A DNA stretch of 63,905 nt, the filler included, from Dugesia japonica (taxonomy: Eukaryota): assembly GCA_001938525.1 (NCBI GenBank). It is 6 parts of 6 records of this genome, joined end to end, with 100 filler letters (N's around TTAATTAATTAA, not from the genome) between each part and the next. Parts side by side here need not be neighbours in the genome. Positions count along the whole stretch, not along the records: positions 14,181 to 22,668 come from MQRL01512880.1; 5 more parts are not named here. One strand, written 5' to 3'. Of this stretch, positions 4,505-32,906 are shown piece after piece. Positions within the stretch are counted from its first letter, which is position 1, and every line of letters begins with the position of its first letter. The translations under genes were made by a program, and so were the position numbers. The notes under the pieces are model-generated. The model saw only the letters and a program-made list of their open reading frames with translations, ran no database searches and was not told where the DNA came from.

Positions 4505-7189
4505 ATAAATAATTATAATTCAGTCAATAACTATAATCTGTTGTTATATAATGTGCTTTAAATAGTGTTGTTATTGAGTCTTGATTATTGAACGTAAAAT
4601 TTTCGATATTGTTTTTCTGTGAAATAAAATTTTGGATGAGTTGTTCAATTTTTAATTCATTGATTATCTAAAAGTTTATTTATGCATTTGTGTGAGAATC
4701 AGTCCAAAGTATTTTATTTAAATCAAAGTTCATTCAAGTGCAGTTTTTTTTTCAAATTCTCGAAAACGAAATAATGATTTCTTAATTGATTTACTTTTCG
4801 TTGGTTTTTATTGTAATTATAATTAAATAATCAATTGTAATGTGACTGTTAGATGAGTTTGAAGTACTCATCGTATCATCAATATCGAAACTCAAGAAAA
4901 TTTATTCACAAAACAAAACTATAACTAATAGTATTTGCTTATTCAAACAAATTAAAATCCCGTGTTTTAATTTATTATTAAAATTTTAATTTATTATTTA
5001 AATCTTTTTAAATCAAAGATTTTAAGAAAAATGATCATCAATCACACAAAAATTTCAACTCGCTTTTCAGAATACACTCCACAAGTGCAATATTTAATTT
5101 TATGAAGTATTTAATTCGAACAAATATGATGTTAAATTGTTTTCTAGAATTTTTTTTAAATTATCAATATTTCATAAAGATTCATTAAAAACTCGAATGT
5201 TACACGACTGTATTTTTGTTTATTTAAATCAAAGTTACAAAATAGACGTTGATAAAAAACAATTATTTATAAATAATATCATTTCATTAAAACAAAAGAT
5301 TTGATCAAATTTTTTTTGTTTTTGATAATATTTCGAATTTTAATTAAGTTAAATTTTAATAATTAAAAACTAAATATTAAAATTTTAATATATTTCTTTT
5401 AATTATAACATGTATAAAACATTAAATATACAGAAAATAATTTAAAAAATTGATCAAAACACAAATTTTCTTAAAAAAAATACAAAAGTTTTAATCGAAA
5501 TAATCTAATTTATTAATATTAATACAATAATTTAAAAATAATAATGATAATAATAATAATTTTATATAAATAGTTTTAAAAATTAAAAAATATAAGATTC
5601 AATAATAATAAAAATTAAATTGAACAAAAAATATATTTTTGATAATTATAAAAGATAATAAATTAAAAAAAAAGATAATTATAATTGAAATAAAATTTTA
5701 AAAATTTCAAATGAATAAAAATTATATTAAAAATATATCAAAATCCAACTAATAATTAAGCATTTAAGAAATTTTTTTCGATGTAATTTAAAATAAAAAT
5801 TTATAACTTAAATAAACCAATAAGATTTTTATAAAATATAAAGAATTTTGTAACAATGTTCTGTTATCGTTTAATCTATCAAAAAGTCATCATATTCCTA
5901 AATAAGACATATGTCGAAAATTTGAATTTCTATAAAAATACATTTTATTTTGATCGAAGCCTTTTCTTTATTTTAATGAAGTATCATTTTTTGTAAAANN
6001 NNNNNNNNNNNNNNNNNNNNNNNNNNNNTTTTTATTTAAATAAATGTTAGAAGAAAAATAAATTGTTATTAATAATGTGTAAGTAAGCCCGCTTCCTAAT
6101 AATAACTATTGCGGCAAATTAAACATTCCTGATAGTTATTTTTAGAGATAATTTTATTATTTTGTTTTAAATTAAAAATATACATTTGAAAAGTATTAGT
6201 AACTTAAATAAAATAGAAATTATTAAAATCAATAAAATGTATTATCATTATAAAAATTTGTACAATTACTTTTACAATTACAGTTTTATCGAAAGTGACA
6301 ATAATAAAAATAACTTATAAAAAATTGTTGGGTTTACATGATTTCAATCTGTGACTAGAAACATTTCATGGAATACCACAAACCTTTAGCATCGGATACT
6401 CCTTGTCCGCACCCGAAGAGATTCTGGTAACTCTCAGACGCACCAAGGTATTGTAACTTCTTTTTTTTCTTCGGGTTCAGCGGATGTGAGTACTAGTCCG
6501 CTATAGATTTTTAATTCTTCGGTAATTATTACCAACCTATATTGGAAGATTTTGACACACTCAGTGAAGATTTTAAGATAACCACAATACTGATTTTACA
6601 CAAGATGAGGAAATCCCACATTTTTTAAGAATGTTAAGTCCTAACTTTAATACATTACGATCATAATAAATTACACAAAATGTTTTCTTCATTTGACCTT
6701 CATAAGCAACTAATCATTTGGTTAGTCTGTTGCCACACTAAAATTTATATCTTTATTACTTATGTTGGGACGAAGCACCCAGAAGAATGAAAGCAAGATG
6801 GAAGGGGGTCATGAATGACCCAATATCAAGATAGTAACGACAGAATAAAACATTTTATGAAAAACAAGTACGAAAATCCGGACAATGATATTAAATGGGA
6901 AACTCAGAAGATCAAATTAAATGAGTGATTAATCATAATAATCGCAAAATTAGGAAAGTTATTAAAGAAAATAAATAAAAGAAGAAGAAATAAATACAAA
7001 AAAATAATAATTAATTTAAACAGAAAAATTAGTTAAAATTGAGACGAAATCTGTTTTATGCAAATAACTCTGGTCAGGAAAGTCGGAGGAAATCCTGGAA
7101 AGAAAATACGGAAAGAAGATAACAAGACGCATTAGAATTGGTAGGAAGCAAAAACTTACCATCATCCAGAAGGGTGCTGCAAGGCTTCC

Positions 7190-7400
7190 AAGATCGGGCC
7201 AATGAGAGACCTAAAAATAAAAATAGAACAAAGACACAATTATCAGGTGTCATGATAAAAATAGCTACCAATTGCTGCACCAAAACTTGTAGAAAATTTT
7301 GGAGAAGTGGCATTGGAGCCAATAGAATCGGAAAAAGGCCGATCTAAAAAATAATCAGCAAATCTAGAACAAGTCTCAGAAATGGTATAAAAAGACCCCT
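7190..7400 (+). promoter_or_regulatory. U3-like Pol II promoter of giant LTR copy 1
   Basis: CCAAT at 7199 and 7319, TATAAAAAG at 7386; TATAAAAAG(g)accc conserved at 24636 and 16305-16313(-). Confidence 0.7.
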
Positions 7401-9041
7401 GACTTTAACGAAAAAAACAACAAAAAAATTATATTTTCATTCCTTGACAGTTGTGTGGAATAATACAAAAAAATTAGATTTGAAAAGTTAATACGCGAAT
7501 TCAATTACTAAAACAAACTAATTTCGTATCAGTGGGAATTAAACCAGAAAAGTCCAAGTAAAAAATTGCACATAAACTTATCCTAAAATAATTATATTAC
7601 TTACAAAGGAGTGAGAAGAAGTCAACATCGACATAAATACACTTTGGTTCAGATCAATTGTTGTTTTCAGTCAAACACCCCGTTGCAGAAAGAAAAGTTG
7701 TGTATAAATAGTAAATATGCGTTATATTTTATATGAGTAATTTAATGAAAACTAATTGTTAATAAATTTTTGTTAACATGTTATTGGTTTATTTTATTAT
7801 TAGTCTAAATAATGATAGTATAAATTCGCAAAATAGCGATTCTGATCTTAAGCTGTTATATAAAATGTATTTTGCCCACAATTAATTCAATTACTCAACT
7901 GGAAAGGCAACCCGGTAAGAAAGTAACAGATGGATGCATACCCACCAACTTATATAACAAATGCTACTGCATATTATCACTTCTCGTCCCACTAGGCATG
8001 CAGCGTAGACAAGTTGATCAGAATAAATTCATGTCTACCCGTCAAGTTGCACAATTAATTTTTTAACCTGGTCATACTGATCGAGATAGGAGACAATTTA
8101 CTAACGGTAATGCGCTGTATAAGGCCTGGATAATAATCGATTAATTCAATTCACTAACCATGCATGTAAAACAATAACACCGCAATCACATACACACAGC
8201 TCGGTTGTAATGCATGCATGCCATGGCAATATTATTCCCAAAATATAGCTAACATAGCAATTCTTAAAACACGTTTCGCAACCTTGAAAGTGTCGCCAAG
8301 GGAAACGTAAATTACCCCAATTCAAATAATACCATTTATTAATATATTTATTAAACATTAAATTGTATTCAGTTATGCTTTCAGGATAGTGAGCCAGCTC
8401 TTAAGTAAATATATCTATAAAACTAAATTAAATTTCAAAGTGTAAAATGAATTATTTCAATTTACAAAGTGGCGAATAAATATTTAAAAAGAAGAAAAAT
8501 TTCTATTAACTGCTATACGGCAAGATGAATAAAATCTTTTACAATTCCCTTCTCAATCGTTTTCTAAAATTGATGGAGAGTATTGTTAGCGAAATGCAAA
8601 AAATTTATTAAAATCAAATCCGGCGTAAATCCAATGATGTATAATATCTTATGGAAAAGTATAACGATGATAAGATAGTTTATGATATTGAATATGGTAT
8701 CCGAAATGTGATGAAAAGCTTTAAGTTGATTTTAATAAAAACAATTTTAACCGTTTTATTAAATTTTAGAACTACAATTGAGAATTTATTGAATTGAATA
8801 GACATAAAATGAAGATTTTCAGGAAAGGTCGCTTTATTACCAGCTAATTTGCAGGGGCACTAATGATTCAAATGGAAAAGAAATACTTGATTTGACAACC
8901 ATATAAATTGTAGCTCCATTTATTTTTTGTTTAAACTTCTCTCATCAGTTTTTTGAAGCAGATACTGGAGTTAGACTGGGGGGATTGTTATAATTTACTA
9001 TGCTAATTAATGGTTAAATAAAAGATAATTTTTGTTGTCAG

Positions 9042-9187
9042 TTAAGAAAACCGGGCAGTGTGACCGACCCTTTCTCGAAAATACTAAAACTAATCCGGCT
9101 TGAAAGGCGTAAATCTCGGAAATGTTCCCCTTGATGTCTTCTGTAGATCTAGATGCAGGACAAGCATCACCTAAAACAGGAGTGTAA
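9042..9187 (+). pseudogene. Cassette ORF A, copy 1 (internal deletion)
   Basis: Acceptor gtcag at 9037-9041; VTDPFSKILKLIRLERRKSRK / MFPLMSSVDLD aligns with copy 2 ORF A ends; AATAAA at 9213. Confidence 0.7.
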
Positions 9188-9321
9188 TCTGTTAATTGCC
9201 TTTCTCGTATAAAATAAATGTACAAGTCGATTGACTCTAATTGTTAATTCTTTGGATTATTATTAATTAATTTAAAGAAAGTTATATATTATAATTGAAA
9301 CCACCTATCTGTTAATTATAG

Positions 9322-9701
9322 ACATAAAGTCAATTTGGGAAAGGGTCGTCGATAGGAGGACTCATCGAAAAATCTTTCGACGACACCACAATCCTCATAA
9401 TCGAGACGCGGGCATCTTGGCCGACCGATCCAATCTACCACCTGTAGAATCAATAGTGTCCCGTATAAGAGATTTTGGGGAACGCCAGCAGTATCAAAAC
9501 TGGACGGGACCTGATCGCACCCTTGCGACGTCTTTTCACTACCGACCTTCTGTTCCAGCTCCTGCTCCCGCAGTGCAGGCTTTCATCTCGAATCTTCTCT
9601 AGGAAGTCAGGGAGCCGAATGGTGTAACCGATGTTGAAAACACCGCCCCAACCCCGACAATAGTAATGATCCACACTAATCCTTTTGGTTGTCTGATATA
9701 A
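9322..9701 (+). pseudogene. Cassette ORF B, copy 1
   Basis: ttatag|AC ATA AAG..; IKSIWERVVDRRTHRKIFRRHHNPHNRDAGILADRSN homologous to B at 27145, 32907, 38949; TAG 9600 at a Trp position; AATAAA at 9701. Confidence 0.72.
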
Positions 9702-9947
9702 ATAAATAAGTGTTTTAGTTGCGGCTACTCTTAATTTTTTTTGGTTTTGTAAAATGAAATTCTGCTAATAAGGGAATGACATTGGATTTAATAACTTTCT
9801 TAAAAAAATAAAATAATAGTAATACCGAGTGATGTTATTAAACTGGATTAATCTTATTATTAATTTGGTGGACCAGACTACTTAGCTTTTCTGTTAGAAA
9901 TTAAACATCTGGTAAAGTGTACCATCTTTAAAAGGTTTATATTTTAG

Positions 9948-10306
9948 TGCATTCGTCATTAAACAAATCACAGGCTCCACGCAAAAAACTACGAGAGACA
10001 AGCGAAGACATTGATCTGACGTGGGACCTTTATAGATTAACTAAAAAGCGTTGGGAGGCCGATGTCGCTAATGCGGAGGCTAAGGTTAAGCGCTATAAAA
10101 CGAAATGCTTATCCTTCAAAGCCGAGGCTGAAGCCTCATATCAACAGGAGAGAGCCTGGAAGGACCAGTTAGACTCTCTGACCGAAATTATCCGGTCCTG
10201 CCACGACCGAGAGAATAAACTGGTAAACGAAATCCTCAAGCTAAAGAAACTCGTACTCCTGTCCCCCCTCATGGTAGATAAAGGCGGGCAGGTTCCTCGA
10301 TCTTAG
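9948..10306 (+). CDS. Cassette ORF C, copy 1 (intact ~119 aa, probable coiled coil, unknown function)
   Basis: attttag|TG CAT TCG..; open to TAG; homologs at 27703 and 33510; AATAAA at 10326. Confidence 0.78.
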
Positions 10307-10440
10307 TTATTTTGTGACTCTAGTTAATAAAAATTTCTGTTGTCTTCGTTGTTCTCTTATTTTCAACCTAATTATGTCATCATCTATATTCAATGCTATT
10401 AATGTGTTTTGAATACTCATGAACTAATTCTTTTATTTAG

Positions 10441-10823
10441 TGCTACGAATTAGTTTTCCCAACAGCGTCCGAAGATGCCATCGCATTATGCGACGCCTTC
10501 TTATTGAGAGGCACTTAAAACGTAAGGCAGATCGGGCCATCCTCAAACATTTAGCCCAACGTGACCAACTAATAAAAAAGTTGGATCTGATAATTAGAAA
10601 ACAGAATGATTTAGCGTCCCAAACCAAGGCCCTCGAGACAGAAAATAAACAACTACTGTTGAGAAAGATAGAATTCCTTAAACAGTATATAGCCGACCTC
10701 TCCCGCCAGATAAACAATCCAACGTTAATACAATAGGACGATGGTGAAGATATCGCCACCTTCAACTTTTCTATAACCGACCCGACCCAGTGGTTGGATC
10801 CTTGGGCGCTAGATTTGATTTAA
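10441..10823 (+). pseudogene. Cassette ORF D, copy 1 (basic N-terminus, coiled coil, acidic QWLDP tail; one W->stop)
   Basis: tatttag|TG CTA CGA..; TAG 10734 aligns with TGG in copy 4; read-through gives DDGEDIATFNFSITDPTQWLDPWALDLI*; AATAAA ~10842. Confidence 0.75.
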
Positions 10824-11399
10824 TTTCTTTTTTGTTTATAAAATAAATGATATAGAATTAATATTGTATTTTCCTTCTTCACTAAAAGATGTAGGGAAAA
10901 GTGAAGCCAAATACAAAGGTTTATGGGTGTGCACCTCCCATTAAGAGAGAGATCAACCGCCATAAACTGAAGACCTACCCTAGGGTCGGTAAGGTAAATT
11001 TTTGAAAGGGTTCCCCTGAGGGCTGTTTTTCCCCAGCCACGTTATTTTTTAACTCAACTCAGGAGGGACCTCAACACTTATATTCTTTACATATTTAAAC
11101 AGTTATTAATTTTAATCTTACAACTTGATTTTCTGTAATCTACACATATTTATGCAATTAAAGACGAGTTACATTTCTGATTTTTTTCGACGAGATTGAG
11201 TACTAATGATATGTTTGAATTCATTTAAATTAAATTTTCAACACAGTTGTCTTTTCATTCTAAGCCAATATTCGTTTTCGAAATTCAAACTTTTCGATTA
11301 CAGTGATTAGTCTCTTACGTCAAGGTTATAACAATGATCCATCAGTTACAAACATAAATTATTCGAAACTGAATATCATCGAAATAACAATTAAAGAAA

Positions 11400-12790
11400 A
11401 CTACGCATGAAAATCAAGGATCATAGAACAGTTGTGTAGCTGACGAAGCAACAAGAAGTTAGAATAAACCGATAAAATAAACGATACTTTTGAGGGTTTA
11501 ATGAAAGCTCTATTGACTGCATCAATATTATGTTTTTCTGAAATAAAAAAAGAATTTATATTAGACACAGATGTCAGGTTTGATACGATTGGATCAGTAT
11601 TGTCGCTGAGAGGTAAAGAAGAAAGCTAAAAGGTTGCGGCTTATGGATTACACTCAATCAAAGGTTATGAAAAAGGATACTGCATCACACGAAAAGATTT
11701 ATTAGCTACTTATTATTTCTGCATGCATTTCAAACATTACTATACGATATAAGATTCACTCTTAGGAAAGATTATAAGGCTCTTACCTTTAGAATGACAA
11801 CGAATAAATCATTTACGGCACAATTCCAGACATGGATTAACTAGCTGAGTAGTCTAGACATGATATCAGAATGTAGAAAAGGAATTCAACATGGTAATAC
11901 AGATATGTTATTTAGACCAAGATGCGAAGTATGTGTACATTGTAAAATGTCACATAAAGATTCCAGGAAAGGGAAGATTAAAACAATAGTACTGATCACA
12001 ATAGAAAAATATAAAGATGGCCAATTAAACATTTCTGAAGAAAAAGATTTAATCAAGAAAATTGATTTTCCGGATTTCGAAATACATGAAACAATGGAAG
12101 AAATACACAAATAATTATGTCATGCAAGAGTTGAAAAGGTGTACGAATATATGATAGACAAATACATTGCGAAGAATTTGTGGAGCCAAATAGTTCATAG
12201 GATAGTTCATAGTTGTGAAATTTGTCAGAAGGCTAATGTAGTGACGACAGCAATTAAAGAGAAGACAAAAAGATTAGAAGCTACCAATTTGTTTGAAGTC
12301 ATATTTATAGATGTATGTTAGCTAATGTAGGAAACAAGTGGACAAAAATACAAACTTAGAACATAAGACCAGTTCGGGACAATTCGAGATTTAATAAATG
12401 CAACACTTTAGGAATGAAAGAAAACAGATTTGGCAGACATTTTACCAGAAATTGATATTACTTTAAACGCAACAAAGCAGAACAGAAGTAGAAAGAGTCC
12501 AGCTGAGATCGCATCTGGAAAGAAAATTATCAAGAAAAGTTGTACGAGTCAGAATTTTCAGATAGAATTAAAGAAAACATTTCAAAAGTAACTAGAGAAC
12601 TCAAAGTAGGAGATTATGTGCTCATCAAGGTAGAAACAAGAAAAAAAGTCAAGACAGAATTCAGGGTCCTTATCGAATAATTGAGAAAATTCACGAAAGA
12701 CGGTATGTGATACAAGGAGAAAATGGACAGCGATTAGAAAAAAATGTAGAAAAACTTAGAAAGTTTCTTAAGAAGGAGAATATAAGGAAA
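11400..12790 (+). mobile_element. Decayed Ty3/Gypsy pol (RNase H-integrase) with PPT
   Basis: FILDTD.., AQFQTWIN, RKGIQHGNTD, CEICQK, FEVIFID, GPYRI; PPT aagaaggaga ~12770; same family as 37440-38632(-). Confidence 0.88.
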
Positions 12791-13029
12791 TAATTAATAA
12801 TTTCAGCCAATAGAAAACGATTAAAAATAATTATCAATATATTAATTATTTCTATGTACCCTTTATTTATTTTAATCAGTTATCTCAGTTAAAAATGAAA
12901 TAAAAATATGTCAAAAATAGTTCTGATTTTCAAAATAAATAATAATTTGAAGATTTATCTAACAATACTCATTCTTAGAGTCTATCAAGCTAAAATATGC
13001 TGCTCCATTTAGTGTATATAACATTATTT

Positions 13030-14124: not shown

Positions 14125-14136
14125 TTAATTAATTAA
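14125..14136. other. Artificial scaffold-joining spacer TTAATTAATTAA (also 22713, 32104, 42002, 52609)
   Basis: Identical 12-mer with stops in all six frames, embedded in 44-N runs, five times. Confidence 0.95.
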
Positions 14137-14180: not shown

Positions 14181-16889
14181 AAAAAAAAATAGCAACACAC
14201 ATTCCCTTAAATCTGTTGATGACTGTTGTTTCTCGGTGCATGATGGTTGATATTGCTTATGAGTAATCGGCAGGTGTGTCTATTAGAACTATAGAGGCAA
14301 TATCAAAATTTTACCAGTATGAATAAACTGACAATTACTGGGAAGGGAAGGACATGCCAATCTGCACGATTCACAATGCTCGAATTATTTCAGGAATTCA
14401 TTACCCAAGCTTACATCTTTTCCTACATTGCTCTGATGGATTAAGGNNNNNNNNNNNNNNNNNNNNNNNNNNNNNNNNNNNNNNNNNNNNNNNNNNAAAA
14501 ATTGGAATTCTCATATTACTAATAAATGTAGATAAGAATAGCTCGCGAGACGATTATTTGATTTTTATTCAAAAAAAAAAATTATCCAAAGCGCTTGAGC
14601 GAAAAATTCAAGAGTATGTTAGAGTCATCTCAATGAACGAATGCCGCTGTTTTATCATTCCTGGGCACTGACTTGGTCTCATGATCCATTATCTTGGTTA
14701 TAAAATACTCGATGCATGATGGAAATATAATGATGATCGGCNTAATTCCGGAGGTGTGGTGATGTGATTTAATCTACTGTTTATCTACTCATTTTCTATA
14801 CGAATCGAAACGGAATTTAACCACTGGTCTCCTTATTTTGGATGTTGGATATAATTAACAATATTACATCAAAATGACCCATGAATGTTCATTTGACTGT
14901 TTTAAATTTATATTAGATGGATTAATCAAATATGAGGAGTTGGTGATTAGATTATGTTGGTTGTTATTTGAGCAGTTACTGAGGGAGAGAGTTTAATTGA
15001 ATACATTTATATATTTTTCTCTTTCTTAATCAATGATAACATGTAAGTAAATTTATTATAATATAACATATATATTCAAAGTGATAAAAATAAAATAATA
15101 GCTAATTATCAATTCACTTTAACAATAACATGATAACAAACATAACAACAAAAATTACTATTATATCTAGCTGTTGGATACGGAGTAAACTGGTTTGCTC
15201 TGAACGGGTACGATAACAACAATGGTCGGTCCTGTTTGTGGAAGTGATAATTTCGTAGTTCGCTCCTTGGCACTTGACTATATTCTGAAATAGTTCTAAC
15301 AATTAATTTTTCCGTTAGATTATTATACCACTTTGCAACTTAGATAGTTAATTAAACGACGATTCACGTCAATTGAGCTCCTGATNNNNNNNNNNNNNNN
15401 NNNNNNNNNNNNNNNNNNNNNNNNNNNNNNNNNNNATTTGACTGTTTTAAATTTGCATTAGATGGATTAATCAAATATGAGAAGTTAGTGATTAGATTAT
15501 GTTGGTTGTTATTTAAGCAGTTACTGAGGGCGAGGGTTTAATTGAATACATTTATATATTTTTCTTTTTCTTAATCAATGATAACATGTAAGTAAATTTA
15601 TTATAATATAACATATATATTCAAAGTGGTAAAAATAAAATAATAGCTAATTATCAATTCACTTTAACAATAACATGATAACAACATAAACAACAAAAAT
15701 TACTATTATATCTAGCTGTTGGATACGGAGTAAACTGGTTTGCTCTGAACGGGTACGATAGCAACAATGGTCGGTCCTGCTTGTGGAAGTGATAGTTCCG
15801 TAGTTCGCTCCTTGGCACTTGACTATATTTTTGCAACTTAGATAGTTAATTAAACGACGATTCACGTCAATTGAGTTCCTGATAGTTTTCTCGTTGATTG
15901 GTGCTACTAAAGGTAGATAACTTAGAGTTGATTAGGCGTAGCTCTACTGATAGAGTAAAATATTGGTTAATGAATGAATTTTTTTGTCTAAAACCGGGGT
16001 CCTTTTTATACGATTTTCTGGACACCCCTACTGGTTTTATATTTGCCGATATTTTTAGAACGGCTTCTTTTCACGCTCATTGGTGCCAGCGCAGAGTTTT
16101 AGAATTTTTTCGTANNNNNNNNNNNNNNNNNNNNNNNNNNNNNNNNNNNNNNNNNNNNNNNNNNTTCACGTCAATTGAGCTCCTGATAGTTTTCTCGTTG
16201 ATTGGTGCTACTAAAGGTAGATAACTTATAGTTGATTAGGCGTAGCTCTACTGATAGAGTAAGATATTGGTTAATGAATGAATATTTTGTCTAAAACCGG
16301 GGTCCTTTTTATATGATTTTCTGGACACCCCTACTGGTTTTAGATTTGCCGATATTTTTAGAACGGCTTCTTTTCACTCTCATTGGTGCCAGCGCAGAGT
16401 TTTAGAATTTTTTCGTAGATTTTGGTGTCGTGATTGGCAACTATTTTTAGAGCGTCAGGTGAGGTTTTATGTCTTTGTTCTAATTCTTTTTCCTGGCCGC
16501 TCATTGGCCGGATTTTTGAATCCTTGCCATACCCCTCTGGAAGGTGGTAGGGTTTTTCTTTTTTCGGTCTGAATTGCACCGTTTAGTTTTCTTCTGGATT
16601 TTTCTTATTAGGGTCCTTTCTGGTGACCAGGGCCCGAGATATCCGCAGAAAACAGATTTTTATCTAATTTTCGTGAATTTTGTTTTTAAAATTAATTAAT
16701 TTTCCGTCTTAATTAATTATTTCTTTATATTATTTTTCGTATTATTTCTTTTTATTTAATAATTTTTCTTTGATTGCTGGCCCGATTGTTGGTTTATGTT
16801 TCATGTATCTTTTTCCTTTTCTCTTTATTTCTTTTCCCTGGTGGCTTTCCTTTTTATTTCTTTTCCTTTAAGGGTGTTTCACCCCAACA
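14181..16889 (-). mobile_element. Giant LTR-like unit, copy 3 (5' part, cut at scaffold end, with internal duplications)
   Basis: Minus strand starts TGTTGGGGTGAAACACCC at 16889 (identical to 23987); promoter region homologous to 7020-7400 and 24280-24660. Confidence 0.82.
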
Positions 16890-17100
16890 TATTTACAATT
16901 TATTCAATTTTTTTGAAAGTTTATTTAATTACTTTGATAAATTATTTTTCATAATGATTTATTTAATTTGCATATTTACATTTACAAAATCCTTGTTCTC
17001 TTTCATACTTAAAAACAACTAAGTGTTTAGAATATTTATTAAATAAAAATTATAACGTTAATTCATATTATTCATCCAACGTTATTTCAAATTTACACAA

Positions 17101-19800
17101 CTCTCCCATCTTTCAAAACGTTTTCCATCTTTTTAGCCATTCTATTCCTTTGGTTTTCAAACTATTTGGAAGTTTGATTTTTTCTTGATATGCTGTTACA
17201 AATCTCACTATATGTTATGGCCTTTCATATAGCAAACCGTTTTTTTATTGTATGCTTCCACTTGGACTAATAACCACTCTCCCTCTTTAAAGTATCTTTG
17301 TCCTTGCTTATCTTTGTCGAAATTTTCCGTTTTCTGTGCAACCTTCTCCAAATTATGTCGTACTATCTCTTCTTTGTCTGCCCTTCCTCTTAAGAGCGCT
17401 TCCTCTTTGTAAGAAAATTTATCTTTCGACCAAATACAATTTCGAAAGGAGGGAATTTTGTTGATTCTTGTATTGTAGCATAAATACTAAATTCTACTCT
17501 CGATAATAATGTCTCCCGATCTTTCTCATTATATTTCTCTTTTATTGATATCGCAATCATGTACCTCGCTGTTTGGATCATCCATTCTTCCAAACCATTC
17601 GACTGGTGTTAATACGGGGAGCTAAATTCGAAATTTTTCTAGTTTCTTTGTCATCACTTGACTTCCAAACACTTTACTTCTGCCCGTCAGAATGAATTTT
17701 GGTTTACCAAAAAGTTAAAACCATTTGTTCAAAATTATCATAAAAATTGTCTCTTTATCCATTTTTAAAACTGAAGATAAGTTGACTAGTTTGCTAAAAC
17801 GATCAATAATTACCACCATATATATATGTCTTTCCAGACTTCCTCGGTTCCATTTAAGCTACATCCACTACAATTTGTTCTAAAAGAATTTTGNTTCTTT
17901 TGTACTACTTTCCTTTTGGCATACATCTCACATTTATCTATACTTTTATTAATTGTTTCACGCATCCCTGGTCAGAAATAATCATCTTGTACGTATGAAA
18001 ATAACTTTTCCCCCCCTACATGACATAAATTTTCATAAATTTTCTTTATCACTTTATCAACTATGTTTGTCGAAAGCACTAACAAGAATTTATTTCCACT
18101 TTCCACAACTAACAAATCATCCACTATTTTCAATTCGTGCTTCAGTTTAATCCAGTAACTTCTTTGATCACTCTTTTTAGTCTCTAAACCTTCTTATTGC
18201 AACATTGCTACACAATTTTGCATTTTTTAATCTTTTGTCTGAGCCTGTCAAATCATTGTAATTATATCGGTCTCATATTAATTCCATTGATATGTTTCAC
18301 TCTCGCCTTTTCTCCTTTTGCGTTTATGTGTTTAATGCTACATAGTAAACATAAACTCTCCTTTAGCCTCGACAACCCATCCGCATTGTTTTATTTTTCG
18401 CCTTTTCTATACTTGAGTTCAAAAATATACTCTCCCAAAATTTGCCATCTACGTCTGAAATTGTGGACTGATTGGTTTCTTTATGTTGTTTTCAGAAATA
18501 CCAACGCTTTGTGGTCTGTTCTTACTAGAAATCTCTTTCCATACAGATATTGTTTGAATTGTTGTATAAATTCGTGTTTAGTTCTTTCCTTGTCATACAA
18601 TACCCTTTTTCATGAGCTGTCAAATGTCAAGATTCAAATCTATTACCACTTCCTTTTCCTCTTCGCATTGACTAAGGACTGCACCGATAGCCCCAAAACT
18701 AGCGTCAGTGTCTAAAATGAACATCCAATTCTCCTCGAGATATTCTATCACTGGAGCATTAGATAATTTGTCTTGTAGCGCATTAAAACGGTTCTGACAT
18801 GCTTCTGTCCAAACTAATGGTTTGGTGCAACCTAAAGTTGTTCCATATAACGGAGCTACTATCTTTGCAAAATCTTTTATGAAACTCCTGTAGCAGTTTG
18901 CTAGTCCCCAAAATGAACGAAGTTTTGAAGAACCTTCTGAAACTATAGAATTTTTTATCTCCTGAATCTTAACTTCATTAATGTATATACTATTTGCACT
19001 GATTGTATGTCCCAAGAATAAGACTTCTTTCTGATAAAGTTTATTCTTAATCCCGAATCTTTGATCCTGTAAAAGACTGTCTCTAGTATTTTATTGTGAT
19101 CCTCAAAATGTTTTTCCGTAAACCAGAATATTGTCCAGTTATACAATAACTCTTTAAAACTAACTCCTCAAATTATTCGTGCATTAACTTTTGAAAATTT
19201 GGCCGGTGCTGTAGCTAATCCAACAGGCATGCTGTTAAATCTGAATTGACCTTCCTTTGCACTAAAAGCACTGACATCTCTTGACTTTTCTGCTAACTCC
19301 ACTTGGTAATAAGCTTGGCCTAGATCAACCAATGAAAATATTTTCAAGCCAGATAAACAATCTAATAATAACTGAATGTCTGGCATTAAAAAAACATTTT
19401 TTCTATCCTCAAACTCACTTGTCTGTAATCCACGCACATTCTTATCAAGTCGTCCTTTTTACCCACAATCACTAATGGAAAATTCCAAGGACTATTACAC
19501 TTGCTGATTACACCAATCTTTGTTAATTGATTTACCATATCTTTAATTTTCTTTTCTAAATGGATTGGCTGTCTTCTAGGGTGATGTATTATAAAGATCT
19601 CCTTTAACTCTTATTACTTTTTTCGAATGTCCAATATCAAACTTTGAAGTCATGATTATCTTACCAAAATTCTGGAGCAACTGAATCATTTTTCTGTTAT
19701 CAATTCCTTTAATCAATTTCAACGCGTTATTTTTTCTATCTTCATCAGAATGTGTTATTTTCAGACTCTCATTTTTGATGTTATTTACTTCTGTTAATTT
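17101..19800 (-). mobile_element. Decayed Ty3/Gypsy pol (RT, RNase H, integrase) with PPT
   Basis: LVDLGQAYYQVEL, QFRFNSMPVGLATAPAKF, LRSFWGLANCYRSFIKDFA, FILDTDASFGAIGAVLSQ, PPFEIVFGR; RT-RH-IN order; PPT gatgggagag at 17101-17110. Confidence 0.93.
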
Positions 19801-20543
19801 CACTCCAAAACTTTGCATAGTATCAATACCGCCTATATATTATAAGTGGATCTGTCTAACTATTATGACTTTATTTTTTCAGACTTCCTTGTTCCACTGT
19901 ATACTTAATTCTGAAAACTATGATCTGGACACTATAAACGGAATTGAATTGATTAGTAAGGCGTTGAAAAAGAAAAGATCTGGAACACTGAATGACTGGT
20001 TTACAAAAAGCGATTAAAATTTATTGTGTTTAAAGATGTTCACATTTCTATTAACTCTTTCAGGACAACTGGTTACACTCGCTAACCACATATTTAAAAT
20101 TAATTTCAAAAATACCTATTGGTTTCTGGTAAGAAACATACTGTAATATGTGTTGATAATACTGCAGATATAGTGTTTGTACATATTCTAGATTGGTAAC
20201 ACTTATTTAAAGGCTGTTAATAATTTGTATAAATAAAAATTTTTTTAGTAAAATACTTTTAGTTCTGTTCTCAAAGAGTTAATACATATTTCATTTTTAT
20301 ATATTTATACATCCTAATATTTAGATATTTGTTTACTTTTAAGGTACAATTTTATGAAATCGTAAAAAGACTTATCAAAATATTTGTAAAAAGAAGACCT
20401 TTTATATATCTTTAAGGGACAGAAAAATTAATTTTAATATCGCGAATAATTATGAATTCTTTAACTCGCCATTTTGTCTAACCCTCCAATTCTTTTAAAT
20501 TTACGGTTCTTGGTGAGTTATAGAGAATTTTGTTTTTATAACT

Positions 20544-20900
20544 CAGGGCTGTCCAACTTTAGGTAACCCGGGAGCCATTGGCAAATATATTTTTTCCATG
20601 GACCACACTAAAAATATTGCAAGTTAATAGGAGTAAATTATATATATGAAAAATCGATCAATTATTAAGTTTAGCAAGTGTTTTCAGAAAAACTATAAAT
20701 ATTATTTTAGTTTAAAACAAGGTTCAAATACATTTTATTTTAATGAGAATTTTGCCACCGTTTTGTTTTCTTTACTAATATAGAAATGTCAATTTCTATT
20801 TGAATTAGAAACGGGACGTGAGCCGTATTTTTGTCGGCCATGTTATAACTGATGGCGGTTCATAATTTCTTTATTTGACAGAAACCAGTATAAGTATTCA
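20544..20900. mobile_element. hAT (Charlie/SPIN-like) terminal fragment
   Basis: Terminus CAGGGCTGTCCAACTT...GGGAGCCA resembles hAT-Charlie termini; partner end not found. Confidence 0.4.
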
Positions 20901-21520
20901 AAATATTATCGATATAACTGATTTGATAGCATAAACTAGTATTGTTGAATTAGTTACTGTTATGAAAGGTGACGTGACTAATTAATTATATTCTTAATTG
21001 AATTTATCGTTTCCCATGTTACTAAAATATTTTATTATGAAAATTTATATAATAAGTAATTAATTTTTCTTGATATTTCTCAAAGTCATACATAACTTTT
21101 TTAAATAAAAAGTTAATAAATCTGATTTAAATCTTATATTTAAAAGAAAAACAAAATCCATCACATTAAAATCTTGTGAAATGAATTTGCACTTTAAAAC
21201 ACAAGTCAGAAATGTAAATGAGGATTCACGTGTGATATTTTCGAAAAGATTACTCGCTTTGAAAATATTATTAATAAGAATAAACAACATCAAAGTAACC
21301 ATTAAAAAATTATCTATGCATTATCTTTTGATTTTAAAAATAAAAATTGAAATTTTTTAATAAAGATATTAACCCATTTTAGATTGGCACAGAAACTGTT
21401 AAAAGGTGTCCAGATTACATAAAATTCAATATTGTAAATCATATAATTAAAAAGAAAAAAATACGCCACATTAAAACATAACCAAAAGTTTTCAACTCAA
21501 AGACAAAATTTAATTAAACA

Positions 21521-22357
21521 TTAAAAATCCAAATCATCATCCGGATCCTCATCATCTTCATCGTCATATTCATCGGGACAATAACTGATACTAATTCCTT
21601 CACCACCTGAAAGAGCAACCTGTTGTTCTTGCTCACTTTTTAAATACGGTAAAACCAATTTATTTTTAGCCTCTAATTCATTTGGTTTCAAATCGATATT
21701 GAAAGTGGTTATTGGCTGTATTGCAGAAGGTTTAGTGTCGGTTTCACAAGATGTGATATCATTATTATGCTTAATAAACTCGTTAATTGTTAAAAATTTA
21801 TAATTTGCATCTAAAACTACATCAATTGATCCTATTTCGATTTTTGAAGTCAACTGTTTATTAATAAAAAAATCACAAATAAATTTTATATGAACATTAG
21901 CTTGACATTCTGAATGTTTGATATTCAATACCGAAGTTGCATACCGATTAAATGTCGAAAATTCATATTCTGTTATACAATCTTCGTGACACAAAATGAT
22001 CATTGTTGAAATATGTGCAAATTGTGAGATTTTTTTTAATTTCTGTACAATCAATTGCACTGGAAATTTCAACAAAATATGATTGATATCATAAATAAAT
22101 ATATTTGTTTTCTTTTCAGAATCGAAATCTTTTGATATTAAATTATCAAAACTCAGTATTTCCAAATTATGAATATTATTTATGTTTTGATTTTCAGAAA
22201 CGCAAAAATTTTCCCGATGAGGAGCTTTTAAATAATTAGAAACTATTGAGTTAAAAAGATGTATTCCTGAATGTTTGTAGTTATCAAATAGAAATACTAA
22301 TTTTGAGGATTCTAAGCCTTGCAACAGATTTTTGATGGAATTAATATTGAGTTTCAT
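21521..22357 (-). CDS. ELP5: Elongator complex protein 5 (Iki1 family), single exon
   Basis: 278-aa intact ORF ending TTFNIDLKPNELEAKNKLVLPY..ISYCPDEYDDEDDEDPDDDLDF, the characteristic ELP5/Iki1 C-terminus. Confidence 0.88.
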   Translation of the reverse strand: MKLNINSIKNLLQGLESSKLVFLFDNYKHSGIHLFNSIVSNYLKAPHRENFCVSENQNINNIHNLEILSFDNLISKDFDSEKKTNIFIYDINHILLKFPVQLIVQKLKKISQFAHISTMIILCHEDCITEYEFSTFNRYATSVLNIKHSECQANVHIKFICDFFINKQLTSKIEIGSIDVVLDANYKFLTINEFIKHNNDITSCETDTKPSAIQPITTFNIDLKPNELEAKNKLVLPYLKSEQEQQVALSGGEGISISYCPDEYDDEDDEDPDDDLDF

Positions 22358-23184
22358 TATTTCAAATAATCTGAATGATTATTTAAACAACTTAGTTTAG
22401 GTTAATATTAAAATTAATTAAAAGAATTACTTAAACATACCTAAGAAAATACTACAACTGAATATTTTATAAAAAAATTTATCAGATCTATTGAGTTTTT
22501 AAGAATGTATTGTTTTTCATTATGAGAAAGTTATCAAAAATTCACAATTTATGAAAGTATTTAATATCATTTACAATTAAATTTAAATACCATTACACTT
22601 TTTTAACAACAAATAATTTTTATTTCAAAAAATTATTTAACAAGCAAAGGTCAAAGTTGCTGTTTTTTNNNNNNNNNNNNNNNNNNNNNNNNNNNNNNNN
22701 NNNNNNNNNNNNTTAATTAATTAANNNNNNNNNNNNNNNNNNNNNNNNNNNNNNNNNNNNNNNNNNNNAACAATCATGACCCGATTTAATCATTATTATT
22801 AACATAATCATTAAAATTATTTGCATAAAATCAGATCATGTGTTGATTCGAAAATGATTTCTTAACAAAATTTATATTAGCATAACAATGAAATCATGTA
22901 CTTTGAAAATTATTTCTTTANNNNNNNNNNNNNNNNNNNNNNNNNNNNNNNNNNNNNNNAAATTAAAGTATTATCACATGTATAAATAATAAATAATATA
23001 TTATTAATTAATCAAAATAAATTTTGTAAACATGATAAAAAAATATTTTATTATAACAAATAAAGTTATTACACAACATATCATTGATAGTTATACATTA
23101 TTTGCTTGATATCCCATAAAGGGATCATAACGTGGTTATTATTCATTTGTTGAAAACCATTTTAAGCAATCTTGATACTATACT

Positions 23185-23986: not shown

Positions 23987-26739
23987 TGTTGGGGTGAAAC
24001 ACCCGCTAAACGGGAATAAGGTTGGAAAGCCGAATCAACAGAATAGAATAGCAGGACAACTATAGTCACCAATAATGAAATATAAGGCCTGAAATCACCA
24101 TTAAAAAAGAACGCAATAAAATCAAAGATGAATACGAAAAACCGGGTAACATGAAAGCAACTTACGATTGGAAATTAAGAAAAGTTAATTAATTAATAAT
24201 AAACAACCAAGAAAAGCAGTATGGAAATAATTAATTAACAAAAGAAAATTAATTAATTTTAAAAAATAAAAAGAAGCAAAATTAGATAAAAAATCTGTTT
24301 TACCCGAATAACGTAGTTCAGGAAAATAGGAGAGAATCCGGGTAAGGAAATACGGAAAGAAAATAATAAGACGCATCAAAATCGCCAAGAAGAAAAACCT
24401 TACCATCATCCCGAAGGGTGCTGCAAGGTCTTCAAGATCGGGCTAATAAGAGACCTGAAAATAAAAATAAAACAAAGACACAATTGTCATGTGTCAAGCC
24501 AAAAATAGACGCCAATGATAACTCCAAAATTTCGAAAACAATTTAGAAAATTGGCACCGGAACCAATAAGAAGTCTAAAAACTCATTTAAAAATAAACCA
24601 CAAATCGGAGAGAAGTTGGGGTGTGCAGAAAATCATATAAAAAGACCCTTAATTTTAGCAGAAACCACAACAAAAAAATTTATAAAACCACTAATTTCGT
24701 ATATTCATATACAGCTAAATTTCTACAGAGGCTTAATCGTGAATCATATCGGTCAACAGATATTCCGAGACATTAGCTGAATAATATTGGTTATCGTGCA
24801 TTAACCGTGATATCACAGAGGATCATTGTAACTTAAATTTTTCTGTTTGCATTGAGGGTAAATTTATTTCTTTCAAGAAACAGGAAAATACCGGAATTCC
24901 CAAGTCAGGAATCAAACCCAGGAATTGCCAAAACGTTATACATAAAAAACCCGTTGCAGGAATCTCTTAGTTTGTCCAAACGAAATAAAGAAGAAGTAAT
25001 TATTATTTTAATTGTGTTAAATTCGTGTTACATGAAAAGTTTATTATAATTTATTCTAATAAATTTAGCTGTTTTATATTGATATTATAAGGAAAATTTA
25101 TCTTGATTTATTAATAATTTCAGCTATGTTGGTTCGAGAAGAAAAAATTTAATCTAATTTATCGCAATAAATTTAGATATGCTAAAAACATCGTAATCTA
25201 CTATTTTAGTTATGAAAATAACTATCACCACGAAAGTCGATGGATAAATTTAGAACCAAAACATCATTAATTTGTTTTTACTTATGCATCTTTAAAAAAA
25301 CAAAAATGAAAATAGTTCGATCATGTCCCACATTAAAATAAATAAGTCCAATGATTTGGTCCAGCTAGAATTTACCGAGTAAACGATTACAAAAAGACAC
25401 AGCAACGGCTAGTATGAAAATCGAATCAGTAATAAATGTTTTGATGTCGATTCAAGTAGTAAATAGCTAGACAAAATAATTGAATACATAAAAAATAAAT
25501 ATATAAAAAAACCATTAGAATTATAACCTTTTTATTTTATCAAAATTAATTATCAATTACAACTCTGAAATGCAAATATCCACAGGAAGGGCCATGGTGG
25601 AAAATCAATAATTATATGTGCATATTTTTCCTTTCTAGTTAAATTCCATAGATCACGAAACTAAGAAACTAGCCTGCTACAGGAGGAAATTAATTATCTA
25701 ACTCCACAATTTTTTCAGTGAATCGAGCTACATAGATAAGTCCTCAAATTGCCTCCAATGTGTTGTTAGGGTCAGAATTTACATTATTAGGAGATATGTG
25801 TAGTTACCGTTATTTAATTCATCATCGAATTGATGCTGACCACTCACTAAACACACCAACACAACAATCGAAAAATCGATGACGTCAGTTAATTCCTAGC
25901 CCGTTGGTGACCTCGAGGCGTTGCCACTGGAGATAAAAATATTTCAAAATTTAAATAATATTGTTATCAATACAACAGTTATTGTATAGTACATGACTTT
26001 CAGGCGGGGTTTATAGGGACATTAATTAAATCTGACCTTCGATAAATTAAAATTATTTTCTTTTATGATAAAATAATAATTGATATCAAGCTCAAAGGAA
26101 GTGGGGATATAATTACAGAAAATAAGAAATAAGATATGATTCTTAAATTTTCTTCATCCCTCATCCTATGAACTTAACGAGCAAAATATGGAAAGTTTTT
26201 TTAAAAAAGTGTTTAGCGGATAAAACCTAAAGCAAAATCTAACAGTATGCAACAATTTATTTAAACCGATATATTTATCATGATTTAAATGTAGACAATA
26301 TCGTTGTTATAAAACGTTTTTCGACCAAATATCAAGTAGAGTTCAACAAAGTAATTATTGATAATTTTGATAAATATCCCTCTCTTAAACAAGAACGGGT
26401 CGCCACCGAGAACAGGTTAATTGAAATAATAAAGAATGAAAGGTGTTATGATATCAATAAATAAACACCTCGTTTTACCTTGTGAAGTAAAATGGGGGGT
26501 TCTTAATGTTGCAAAATTAAGAGATAAAATCGATCGGACGTAGAATTCTCCCATAAATGGTGGTTCCTGGATTTACTAGTGTTCCCCCGATTAAACTCAG
26601 TTACCAATGTTTTAGGGTACTTATCGGAGAATGTTTAAGTTGGATGGTAAACGAACTATAGAGACGTTTTACATTTTCATTCTTTTGGTTAAATAAAACA
26701 TTCTTTCATTCTGTTTCATTAGTCAGGCAACCAAACAGC

Positions 26740-26922
26740 ATGGCCAATCCTTTTACTAGAATATTAAAGCTAATTCGGGTTGAAAGACACAAATCTCGGA
26801 AAAGGTAGTTGCTATCTCACATTCTATCTCGCGGTGTGATCGAGCATCCCGACGAAACTGATCTCCAGTGTTTCGTCGAAATGTTCCCGATCCAGAATCG
26901 AGTAGATTTGGACGAGGAATGA
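26740..26922 (+). pseudogene. Cassette ORF A, copy 2
   Basis: MANPFTRILKLIRVERHKSRKR*LLSHILSRGVIEHPDETDLQCFVEMFPIQNRVDLDEE*; acceptor cattag at 26717-26722. Confidence 0.75.
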
Positions 26923-27126
26923 CAACGCGGAATAGGAATGAATTCGGGCGACATAGTTGCAGGCATAAATGTTTGAATTTTCACCGGTCCTTAATTACAA
27001 TTTTGCATGTGGTTTTACCGAGTAACAAATCTTGCAAAATAAATCGAATTGTTGTTATGGCTTGTGTTTAGTTATATAAATTAAGGTCTATTTGCCACAC
27101 TTCTGTTTTGCTACTCAAATAAAAAC

Positions 27127-27555
27127 CTGGAATACAAATTAGAAGTGAGCCTTGACACCCGTTCAGGTCGAACCGTGTTCCGGCGGTATCAAAATCCTTA
27201 TGATCGCCACGCCGGTGTGTTAATATACCGTTCCAATGTTCCTGTTGAACAATGCACAGCAGATCGGCAATGGGATGCAACTGAGAGGGCAGCCTATTAC
27301 AGTTGGTGTGGCCCGATGAGAGATAGAGTCGCCTTCTCACCGGCACCTCTTTCTTTTGAGCGATCCGCAGAGGTGCCACAAGTAGAACGAGTATGGCATG
27401 ATGGCCCATCGTTTATCGGTATCACCACGAATCGCTTACCCTCAACCTCGCAACTGTCTTCCTTAGTGCAAAATTATCTATGGGATGCCCGTAATGGTAT
27501 GGTCAGCAGTAATGATGAAAACTCTGGTGAAGAAGTCTCCGAGATATCGGTGTGA
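27127..27555 (+). pseudogene. Cassette ORF B, copy 2 (acceptor and start deleted, body open)
   Basis: SLDTRSGRTVFRRYQNPYDRHAG...LWDARNG; close to 38949 copy; AATAAA at 27569. Confidence 0.78.
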
Positions 27556-27702
27556 CCTATCTTATAGAAATAAAGTTTTGGCTAGGAATTTGTTCTCTCT
27601 GTCTTTTATTGTTTGATTGGTTAAAACCCTATTCAACTTTTGCTTTTTTGACTATAAACAGTTTTAATGAAATTCCGTAATTTTATTATGTTTATGTTAT
27701 AG

Positions 27703-27862
27703 TGCATTCCTCGCTAAACCGTCCATCGGCCTCTAATAAACAGATAAGAGAATCCAGTGAAGACACCGAAATGTCCTGGGAGTTATATCGACTAGTGAAA
27801 CATCGATTTGAGGCTGAGATAGCCACTGCCAACGCAAAAGTGAAGCGTTATGAGAATAAATG
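27703..27862 (+). pseudogene. Cassette ORF C, copy 2 (truncated)
   Basis: ttatag|TG CAT TCC..; HSSLNRPSASNKQIRESSEDTEMSWELYRL; homology stops after KC. Confidence 0.75.
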
Positions 27863-28800
27863 TGTAGTAAACTGGATGCCCTTAGCTATCTACATCTCCA
27901 CGCCAAACAAGCAAGAATTGAAGTAGAATCCGAAAATAAAAGACTCCAAACCATAGCAGCAAAAAGTCGAGCTCGTATGGGTCAACCAGCCAGAATATTA
28001 TCCAGAATAAACAATCCGAAGGAGAAAGACATTTTTTCTAGAGAACCCTCCAACTCCCCTTCTAGTATTCAACCCGAATATGAATTCCCAGCTTGCATAT
28101 TTAACGAACCTTACGATAGTGAGATACCTTCAGCATATAACGACATGTCCTGCCCACGATTCTTACTTACACAAAGATGACGGAGCATCTTTTCGTAGGG
28201 GGGTACATGTGTTGAGTTACACACAACATGCAAATACACAGTATGCAAATCAGTACACACATACATAACACACAGATAACAACGAATGCATCAAACAGAA
28301 CCAGATTCAAGTTGATCAATCTTCAAAGTCAAAGCAATCTCCCAAAGCAGAGTTGATTCAAACAAATTCAAATCCCAAACAGATCCAATTCAAAACAATT
28401 TGACTTATCCATTATCTGACATTATTTATTTGACTTATTAATATTCTATTTTCTGACATTGTTTATCTGAATTATTAATTCTGCTGAATTGAACATTTTA
28501 GTTTATAATTCATGAATTAAATAGTGTAGTCAGTTTTGTTTTTAATTCATTGAATTTATTTTATTTTAGTGTAAAATATTTTAAATTTATTTTTAGAAAG
28601 CAATTTATTTTTTGTGAAAATTTTTAAAGTTATTTTTGAAATACAATTAATTTTTGTAAAAAATATCTAAATGAATAAAATTTTATGGCAAATGTAAAGT
28701 TAAATTTTGAGAATTTTATTGTAGGTGTATCAAACCTACCTGTGTGAGATTAGTATAAATACTAATCAGTTTTTATTGTAAAGCAGACAATTCAATTACA
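27863..28800 (+). mobile_element. Probable nested LTR of another retroelement
   Basis: Begins TGTAGTAAAC exactly where ORF C homology breaks; candidate end TTACA at 28800; partner LTR not visible (gap). Confidence 0.45.
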
Positions 28801-29089
28801 GAAGGCTCCGAACTCTAAGTGAGGCAGTACTTCTGATAATTAAANNNNNNNNNNNNNNNNNNNNNNNNNNNNNNNNNNNNNNNNNNNNNNNNNNNNNNNN
28901 NNNNNNNNNNNNNNNNNNNNNNNNNNNNNNNNNNNNNNNNNNNNNNNNNNNNNNNNNNNNNNNNNNNNNNNNNNNNNNNNNNNNNNNNNNNNNNNNNNNN
29001 NNNNNNNNNNNNNNNNNNNNNNNNNTTTAACACCCATAAAATCTTAATTATATATTTTTACGAACCATAAAATCTTTTGTTGAGTTGTA

Positions 29090-29877
29090 ATACCCAACAT
29101 ATGTCTTCCCACCTGGTTTTGCAAATATGTTATTATCGTCACATCTAATTTTGTCAAAATTCCTTCTAATATGATTTTCTGATCCGCATGCGTAACAAAT
29201 TCTTTTCTTTTCCGTACAATTTCTGCTGATATGACCTATCTTCTCACATGACCAACATGTAATTTCTTTTTAAGCTTCATTTTGAGTTTCATTAACTCCT
29301 GAGAAACGTTTTTTTGCCATGCATATTTTTACTGCATTGCTGTTACTCTCCACCGTATTTATATTATCTGTTTCTTTCAGCTCCTTTAGTTCGTCATTTG
29401 CTTTTATTGTTTCAAATATCTCTTCTGAGTTAGCTAGTTTGCCTTCTTTAATCTTTATTTGCATCCTTTTGTCGCGCAACTATTCAATATTAATTCTTTT
29501 GTCATCTCTTCTTTGTCTAGCTTGTGTGCAAAGCTTTTATCGACCAGTGTTAAAATCCTTATCTTGTACACATAAACGTGTTCACCCGTTCTCTTTTAAA
29601 GCTTGCTCCAAGTCTTGTATTAGAGTAGTCTTTTGCGGAACACTTTTCTCAGTCGGTCCTCAAAATCTAATAATTCATCTTGGCACTCGTATGCTTCTCT
29701 TAATTCTCGATCAATTAAGCGAATCACTAAGAGGTTTTTATACTTTTCTTTACACCAATACATTCGAAGTTTTTGGTGCAACCATTGATAAACTGTTCAA
29801 TATCGTCACCATGCCAGTAAATTCCTGGGTGTAGTGCTTCTCGAATGAGGTCCATTGAAGTGTTGGTCGCCATGTTA
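29090..29877 (-). mobile_element. Gypsy gag remnant with two CCHC zinc knuckles and primer-binding site
   Basis: TAACA|TGGCGACC LTR-end/PBS at 29877-29865; CWSCEKIGHISRNC..CYACGSENHIRRN(F). Confidence 0.85.
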
Positions 29878-30089
29878 GTTACTGATAAACTTTCTGAAAA
29901 GTCCATTAAATTCAATAAATTTTTATTTATAACACAACATTTCAAATCTTCAAATCAAAAAAACTCATGTTTTTAAAACCTGAATATTTAAACAAACATT
30001 TTAAATATTTTAAAAAATTTTTGAAATCTTTTTTAACATTTTCTTCAAACTTTAAATTTTAATTTTAAATTTTTAATCCTTAGAGGTAT

Positions 30090-30640
30090 TTAGTAATAAT
30101 TCAGGTTGGCCGTCATCGAGCTGCATTTGGAAGAGACGCTGTTAAAGGGAACTTCTTCGAATTGAATTAACAATTTTAAATGCTTTTTCCATAACTTCTT
30201 TTGTGTTAGGCCTCTTACTGGCTAATAATTGCCGGTGAATTATGCAATGGTATCTCAAAAGACCTTGGAAGTCTCTTCATTTTGACATAGGGCTATAAAT
30301 CCATTTATGTGACCTATGATTGCAGCTGCGCCATCCATTGTTATTGAAATTAATTTAAAAAGTGGTACTTTCAAATCATTGAGCAAATTTTTAAAGGCTT
30401 TGAATATATCGACTTGAAACTTTACGTTTTCTCAATTCAGTATTTTGTGGATAATCTGTTTGATCCTTGTTATGTAAAGTTAAAAAAATGTTTCTCCAGA
30501 TTAGCTTTTTTATGGCTTTCGAGGTAAGGAATATTAAGCAACAACATTCATCATTTACCATCGTAAATAAGTAATCGAATTTCCATTCTTCACTGAAATG
30601 ATAATGTTTCGAATGTTTTGGTTTACTACTCATGTTCATA
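30090..30640 (-). mobile_element. hAT transposase remnant (GTF2IRD2/SPIN-like)
   Basis: HFSEEWKFDYLFT..CCCLI zinc-finger start; KLISITMDGAAAIIG catalytic-D region; deleted and frameshifted. Confidence 0.72.
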
Positions 30641-32785: not shown

Positions 32786-32906
32786 TATTTTCTTCAGTTT
32801 TATATCAATTATTAAATGCGTTTCTATAATTATCTCGCTTTTTCATATTTATTGAGTTATTTATCACTATTTAATCTAAATAAAAGTTTACTATAATTTT
32901 ACAGAG

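Follow-up and report, generated by a model that had tools for sequence, protein, structure and literature searches.

Intron loss serves as a reporter of retrotransposition in engineered elements. For Ty1 carrying an inserted intron it is described as proof of retrotransposition (PMC12786077), and in mini-Tnt1 the loss of an engineered intron marks the same event (PMC2923131). The locus described here, from the planarian Dugesia japonica, resembles both systems in that an intron in element RNA appears to have been removed exactly in reverse-transcribed copies. As those systems are described, however, their intron is artificial and internal, whereas the candidate presented here is natural, about 47 nt long, located within the LTR and apparently retained by most copies.

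Natural introns have also been described in LTR elements. Ogre, a giant-LTR gypsy element, carries one that is spliced from only part of its transcripts (PMC6317226), while in BARE1 a 104-nt gag intron is removed from roughly half the transcripts of one RNA pool, and genomic DNA did not show the spliced form, as only unspliced RNA is packaged (PMC3735527). Our locus would share with BARE1 a short intron in an LTR element, and with Ogre a natural intron in a giant-LTR gypsy-type element. It differs from BARE1, going by that description, in that intron-less DNA copies exist, and from Ogre in that the Ogre intron is described as dividing two coding frames of the internal region, whereas the present piece belongs to a leader that is non-coding and part of the LTR. 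Intron-less genomic copies of Ogre have reportedly been observed. Penelope-like retroelements with introns are likewise said to have been reported by Arkhipova et al. in 2003; they too retain introns despite an RNA stage, but they are a non-LTR class with another enzyme and another mode of replication.

The closest described relatives by host are Burro and GYPSM1, giant gypsy-like planarian elements with multi-kilobase LTRs, high copy number and an internal region of up to 25 kb that encodes a giant ORF1 (gag, MATH, BCL2, env-like, BIR, pol) (PMC6431247). Multi-kilobase LTRs, high copy number and an AT-rich lophotrochozoan host are features in common, in a comparison made by description alone; section 7 of that source mentions neither an LTR intron nor LTR-borne small genes (PMC6431247). 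Our literature search, which covered few subscription papers and not the primary Burro and Ogre papers (either of which may hold a precedent), returned no paper that, by its title or opening abstract lines, reports an LTR-internal intron lost from genomic copies or splicing in planarian giant LTRs. The process itself is known; what is new here is its location inside the LTR, its likely repetition and the retention of the intron across lineages.

Contig structure of the locus

The window analysed is a 63,905-nt stretch of the D. japonica assembly GCA_001938525.1, and its MQRL01512880.1 part (positions 14,181-22,668) holds three contigs, A, B and C. We compared it with 7 of 24 public runs, namely the contig sets X1, X4, X5 and X8 and the raw RNA runs X15, X16 and X19. 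The layout of the locus is as follows.

14497-15385, minus strand: contig A, LTR copy with the 47-nt piece (alignment, public contigs)
15386-15435, no strand: 50-N scaffold gap between A and B
15436-16114, minus strand: contig B, alternative LTR copy without the 47 nt, joint at 15829/15830 (alignment)
16115-16164, no strand: 50-N scaffold gap between B and C
16165-16187, no strand: first 23 nt of contig C, which starts at 16165; overlap with A (exact match)

An earlier, sequence-only reading of this DNA had described two duplicates of the LTR leader lying side by side. That arrangement does not hold. The copies are not contiguous but sit on separate contigs with N gaps between them, and the last 23 nt of A (15363-15385) match the first 23 nt of C exactly, which indicates that A and C are one haplotype. 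Contig B, by contrast, overlaps A with 3.1 % difference (14/447) and C with 2.8 % (7/253). Record 8 of X1, a public DNA contig, matches 15317-15385 with 0 differences, and record 14 of X5, with C-type letters, halts at the joint with 15 letters remaining; both support a junction of A with C that retains the intron. The gaps, the exact overlap and the public contigs that join C-type sequence to the intron side together led us to reject a tandem duplication; on these alignments, contig B is another copy or allele that the scaffolder wedged between A and C. Anyone working with this assembly should read the seeming tandem duplicate as a scaffolding bubble. No letter private to B was found in X4, X5 or X8, and none is listed in X1, so B is represented by the assembly of the window and by none of the public contig sets compared.

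Several other features of the window were recorded. The same part carries the host gene ELP5/Iki1 (Pfam PF10483) at 21521-22520 on the minus strand, with a candidate GT...AG intron of 70 nt towards its 5' end. A CREB3-like bZIP exon lies at 50898-51101 on the plus strand, its best named matches including flatworms and molluscs at 79-87 % identity, and a tandem repeat with a unit of approximately 320-330 nt occupies 60380-61880. The TTAATTAATTAA spacers between runs of 44 N (14125-14136, 22713-22724, 32104-32115, 42002-42013 and 52609-52620, the last assigned from the N pattern) are joining marks and not genome.

The 47-nt piece and its putative splice signals

The leader in which A and B differ can be laid out on the strand of the TATA box as follows.

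16883-16889, minus strand: giant LTR start TGTTGGG, 576 nt ahead of the TATA box
16306-16313, minus strand: TATA box TATAAAAA of copy A-C (in B at 16003-16010)
15332-15385, minus strand: putative leader exon 1, 3' part in A (runs on in C), with diagnostic places at 15361, 15362 and 15371
15285-15331, minus strand: candidate micro-intron, 47 nt, GTGGTA...TTTCAG, in A and missing in B (alignment; X4 contig joint 15284->15332)
15159-15284, minus strand: putative leader exon 2, 126 nt, GC 0.41, no ATG
15200-15208, minus strand: motif CCCGTTCAG in leader exon 2, common to other LTR lineages
15153-15158, minus strand: candidate second donor GTAATT, with AT-rich DNA (GC 0.16) after it

Alignment of A with B gave 447 letter pairs with 14 mismatches (13 of them transitions), two 1-nt gaps and a single 47-nt gap, which falls exactly at 15285-15331, as the sequence-only reading had it. 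Its further observation of a GT start, a CAG end and boundaries that cannot slide was also borne out: on the TATA-box strand the piece runs GTGGTA...TTTCAG, with the GT start and YAG end of a U2-type intron, and its boundaries slide 0 positions to the left and 0 to the right, leaving no microhomology. When random 40-60-nt deletions were scored on the element strand with sliding allowed, GT...AG ends arose in 54/15729, 41/13755, 283/89124 and 293/87024 cases in four LTR stretches, a rate of 0.30-0.34 %, and GT...YAG ends in 0.13-0.24 % of deletions in the same stretches. The GC content of the piece is 0.26 against 0.35 and 0.41 in its flanks. Its length lies inside the planarian short-intron peak of 45-85 nt (as given in PMC13594981), and planarian intron lengths are elsewhere described as centred on 57 (PMC4978528).

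The splice signals are uneven in quality. A competing GT at 15328, 3 nt further in, would yield a 44-nt intron, slightly under the 45-85-nt peak, which may explain the use of a weak donor. Beyond GT, the donor consensus is GTRAGT, pairing with U1; against this general, not planarian-specific consensus AAA/GTGGTA is a poor match, in agreement with the earlier view that the donor is weak beyond its first two letters. The CTAAC noted before as a branch-like motif is present, at intron positions 14-18 of 47. Its role as branch site is doubtful since it lies close to the donor (17 nt) and is followed by a TAG at 35-36, and TTAAT at 26-30 would be the likelier branch site.

Intron-less and intron-bearing copies in public contigs

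The sequence-only reading had proposed counting variants with and without the intron in genomic reads. An intron-less one was found in assembled contigs: record 16/6 of X4 (232 nt, depth 24.6) carries the joint 15284->15332, here called haplotype E. On the short side of the joint lie 26 letters, fewer than the 31 of the bridging rule, and X4 is classed 'DNA?' by guess, in a set whose contigs may be mosaics. The joint is listed or covered in one of the four contig sets (X4; not X1, X5 or X8). Haplotype E aligns to B unbroken over 15804-16032, beyond the TATA box, and differs from it by 10 letters and 1 gap over 228 nt. Seven of these 10 letter differences are listed; five are found at 20-47 nt from the joint, spaced by no more than 20 nt, and hence likely belong to the same molecule as the joint. 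By these letters, E is an intron-less haplotype other than B.

This second haplotype bears on whether B could be an assembly artefact, or could derive from cDNA reads that had entered the assembly. In favour of such an origin, B is short, is flanked by gaps and has private letters that are absent from the public sets compared with it; the same joint nevertheless recurs in an independent contig set on another haplotype, and B keeps its TATA box, the 104 nt that precede it and 268 nt downstream of the candidate second donor, unlike a mature mRNA. We regard an artefact as very improbable. A processed copy of a mature mRNA was rejected on related grounds: E also runs past the TATA box, and retention of the TATA region in both, together with the 268 nt past the next donor in B, indicates that neither copies a finished mRNA.

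Depth at 15311 in intron-bearing contigs is 240.6 in X4 and 730.7 in X1, while the joint has 24.6 in X4 and none listed in X1; contig depth measures copy number no more than roughly, yet since intron-bearing contigs are far deeper, the intron-bearing state is the common one and the change is a loss. A third haplotype, D, taken from the main contigs and possibly a majority mosaic, shows that intron-bearing copies other than A exist.

The three diagnostic places allow the copies to be ordered. A agrees with B at 15361, 15362 and 15371, whereas E reads differently there and agrees with paralogue contigs (F) whose match to A ends at 15351; the F letters come from loose-end rows of X1 and X4, in a register set by the last 10 letters matching A. 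The F paralogues are probably intron-bearing, because only 20 nt of exon 1 are left of 15351 and no X4 depth is added across the joint on B. With the intron state of F so assigned, the tree from the diagnostic letters is ((A+, B-), E-), F+, for which two losses at identical boundaries are the simplest reading. The 47-nt piece has thus probably been lost twice, separately and at the same two bases; a crossover within ~29 nt of the joint could mimic this pattern.

Such a crossover is what a single, ordinary DNA deletion would require. In that account, a deletion that ended on GT and AG by chance, in sequence that was never spliced, spread to B and E by copying or recombination, and the pairing of intron-bearing A with B then calls for the crossover near the joint. 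Plain deletions do happen in this leader: among its large skips (47, 68 and 72 nt) one of three has GT-AG ends, and the two others do not. The donor is weak, the indel was picked out of several, which by our estimate raises the chance of one GT...AG match to approximately 1-3 % for 3-10 indels, and the RNA runs yielded no junction. Each such deletion would nonetheless carry a chance of only 0.3 %, with zero microhomology at an intron-sized length, and matching GT...AG pieces occur in two other lineages (see below). We consider a chance deletion distinctly unlikely; the shared pair of loss boundaries is explained by splicing and not by chance deletion. The 68- and 72-nt skips were seen in paralogue contigs of X5 and X8 at 15914-15987 (in B), right past the predicted transcription start.

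The RNA runs themselves contributed little. On A, at 90 %, X16 and X19 each yielded 0 reads in a comparison that had no host-gene control and is silent on expression, and X15 gave 1 partial read on B at 85 %, again with no host-gene control. X8, labelled 'RNA?', has a DNA-like profile whose depth is high across the TATA region but drops to 0 across 15804-15872, leaving the joint uncovered.

Another account keeps the intron but changes the route of its loss: a real intron would have been removed from resident LTR copies by recombination with cDNA of the spliced leader (gene conversion), in which case B may be an allele of A-C. B sits as a bubble on A-C, as alleles do, it retains the TATA region and the second intron, and planarian genomes are described as having regions of lasting heterozygosity (PMC11410931). 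Against this, the A-B divergence of ~3 % exceeds the ~1.3 % neutral value that we computed from strain-split figures given in PMC13309565. Moreover, summed contig depth over the promoter stretch 15965-16080 (in B) is ~24,000-34,000 compared with 25-54 at the joint, which suggests that several hundred copies or more share the promoter while the leaders behind it diverge; with hundreds of promoter-sharing copies, paralogues are abundant. We regard gene conversion or allelism as unlikely.

We therefore favour, as likely though well short of certain, a micro-intron of the spliceosomal type, close to the 5' end of the LTR transcript, that was lost through reverse transcription of spliced RNA, probably on two occasions. 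The earlier proposal that a spliced RNA was reverse-transcribed back into the genome gains from the intron-less joint in an X4 contig judged to be DNA, on a haplotype that is not B; in one detail it was wrong, the blocks not being tandem duplicates. Its corollary, support for an RNA-intermediate life cycle, is not needed, since all LTR elements are expected to have such a cycle.

Reverse transcription of spliced RNA would proceed as follows. A TCATT initiator-like site lies ~30 nt past the TATA box TATAAAAA, and transcription from this box, ~600 nt into the LTR, would start ~30 nt or more beyond it, so that the 47-nt piece would fall within R or U5, ~150 nt from the RNA 5' end. During LTR replication, an intron in R/U5 is copied early and passed to both new LTRs. 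The piece would accordingly enter minus-strand strong-stop DNA, and an RNA from which the cap-near intron had been removed and in which the next intron had been kept would give new LTR DNA without the 47 nt; the same product would result if the template switched, within exon 2, to a spliced leader. Most packaged RNA would keep the intron, presumably on account of the weak donor.

Matching leaders and small frames in the giant LTRs

The best reading of the surroundings is that the 47-nt feature sits in a giant Ty3/gypsy-type LTR. Of the copy at 16889 only the start lies within the window, with no purine tract ahead of it, and no internal region linked to the giant LTRs was found within the window. 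Diverged lineages of the LTR are present in other parts and provide the following features.

6763-11076, plus strand: LTR1, solo LTR from a diverged lineage, complete at 4.3 kb, with ends TGTTG...CAACA and a CTTA target-site duplication
7558-7608, plus strand: 51-nt GTAAAA...AAG piece at the matching place in the LTR1 leader
9322-10736, plus strand: three small open frames in LTR1 (92, 118 and 97 codons), with a phase-1 YAG acceptor ahead and AATAAA after
23987, plus strand: start of LTR2, a diverged lineage
24828-24877, plus strand: 50-nt GTAACT...AAG piece at the matching place in the LTR2 leader

LTR1 has the TG...CA ends and short inverted repeat of an LTR, with CTTA on both sides, and a further diverged LTR end was seen at 34623. 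The TATA box TATAAAAA lies 576-649 nt after the LTR start in three lineages. The leaders of LTR1 and LTR2 cannot be aligned to A at the piece, yet both contain an AT-rich GT...AG piece there, at similar distances from the TATA box (172 nt in LTR1, 192 nt in LTR2 and 180 nt in A) and from a shared motif, CCCGTT(G)CAG (71, 73 and 77 nt, respectively). This motif occurs at 7679, 15208, 15753 and 24950, in leader exon 2 of the three lineages, the rest of their leaders being unalignable. At other positions such a GT...AG piece is met at 1.7 % and 2.8 % of places, by criteria that were set after the data were seen. The acceptor of both the LTR1 and the LTR2 piece is AAG, a weaker form.

The leaders also lack start codons. 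With boundaries chosen by the analyst, those of the three lineages (276, 224 and 256 nt) contain 0 ATG compared with ~4 expected (P 0.0135, 0.010 and 0.008, respectively), and the ATG-free stretches run over 7436-7710, 15159-16283 and 24690-24995.

The small frames inside the LTRs are arranged in a way that fits splicing from a common leader, as judged from the frame layout of LTR1. A phase-1 acceptor in the homologous frame was seen in 7/9 candidate exons, which were picked by eye in four LTR lineages. None of five small LTR frames tested reached a Pfam family above the cut-off, matches in the Atlas for 9950-10303 were weak (recognition 1526), and no relative of the frame at 27112-27552 was found among 11 candidates. 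The leaders offer no start codon for downstream frames, though most of the small frames begin without an ATG of their own, and an exon that would supply one was not found.

Remnants of other retroelements lie near these LTRs. A decayed Ty3/gypsy pol with RNase H (Pfam PF17919) occupies 16890-20000 on the minus strand and ends in a purine tract of its own at about 17100; the would-be 3' LTR of this decayed element appears to carry the giant LTR as an insertion ~200 nt in. We doubted that the pol at ~17100-20000 is the giant LTR's own, given that its purine tract lies ~200 nt ahead of the giant LTR start, and it likely belongs to another element. Two decayed gypsy RNase H-integrase copies, 76 % alike, were found at 11400-12970 (plus strand) and 37265-38630 (minus strand), the latter adjoining an LTR small-gene fragment at 38700-39400. 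At 29000-29850 on the minus strand, inspection by eye revealed a decayed, gag-like stretch bearing CCHC knuckles.

Taken across lineages, the matching pieces allow a tentative proposal that goes further than the loss itself: giant LTRs may keep a host-type micro-intron across unalignable lineages, even though their own replication can erase it, and intron-less copies may recur with identical boundaries but stay rare since the element needs the intron. If so, the need could be for common-leader splicing to the small LTR genes, for export or for escape from silencing. The intron would also be a natural reporter of retrotransposition, and selection against its loss could be measured from genomes alone.

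Passage through RNA is classically marked by the exact loss of an intron, which here would provide DNA-level evidence that the leader is spliced. Leader splicing in turn would support the idea that a single spliced leader serves the expression of the small genes in giant LTRs. How an LTR element retains an intron that its own reverse transcriptase removes would become a question that can be answered by counting: with hundreds of copies, the share, age and descendants of intron-less lineages should be readable from a long-read assembly.
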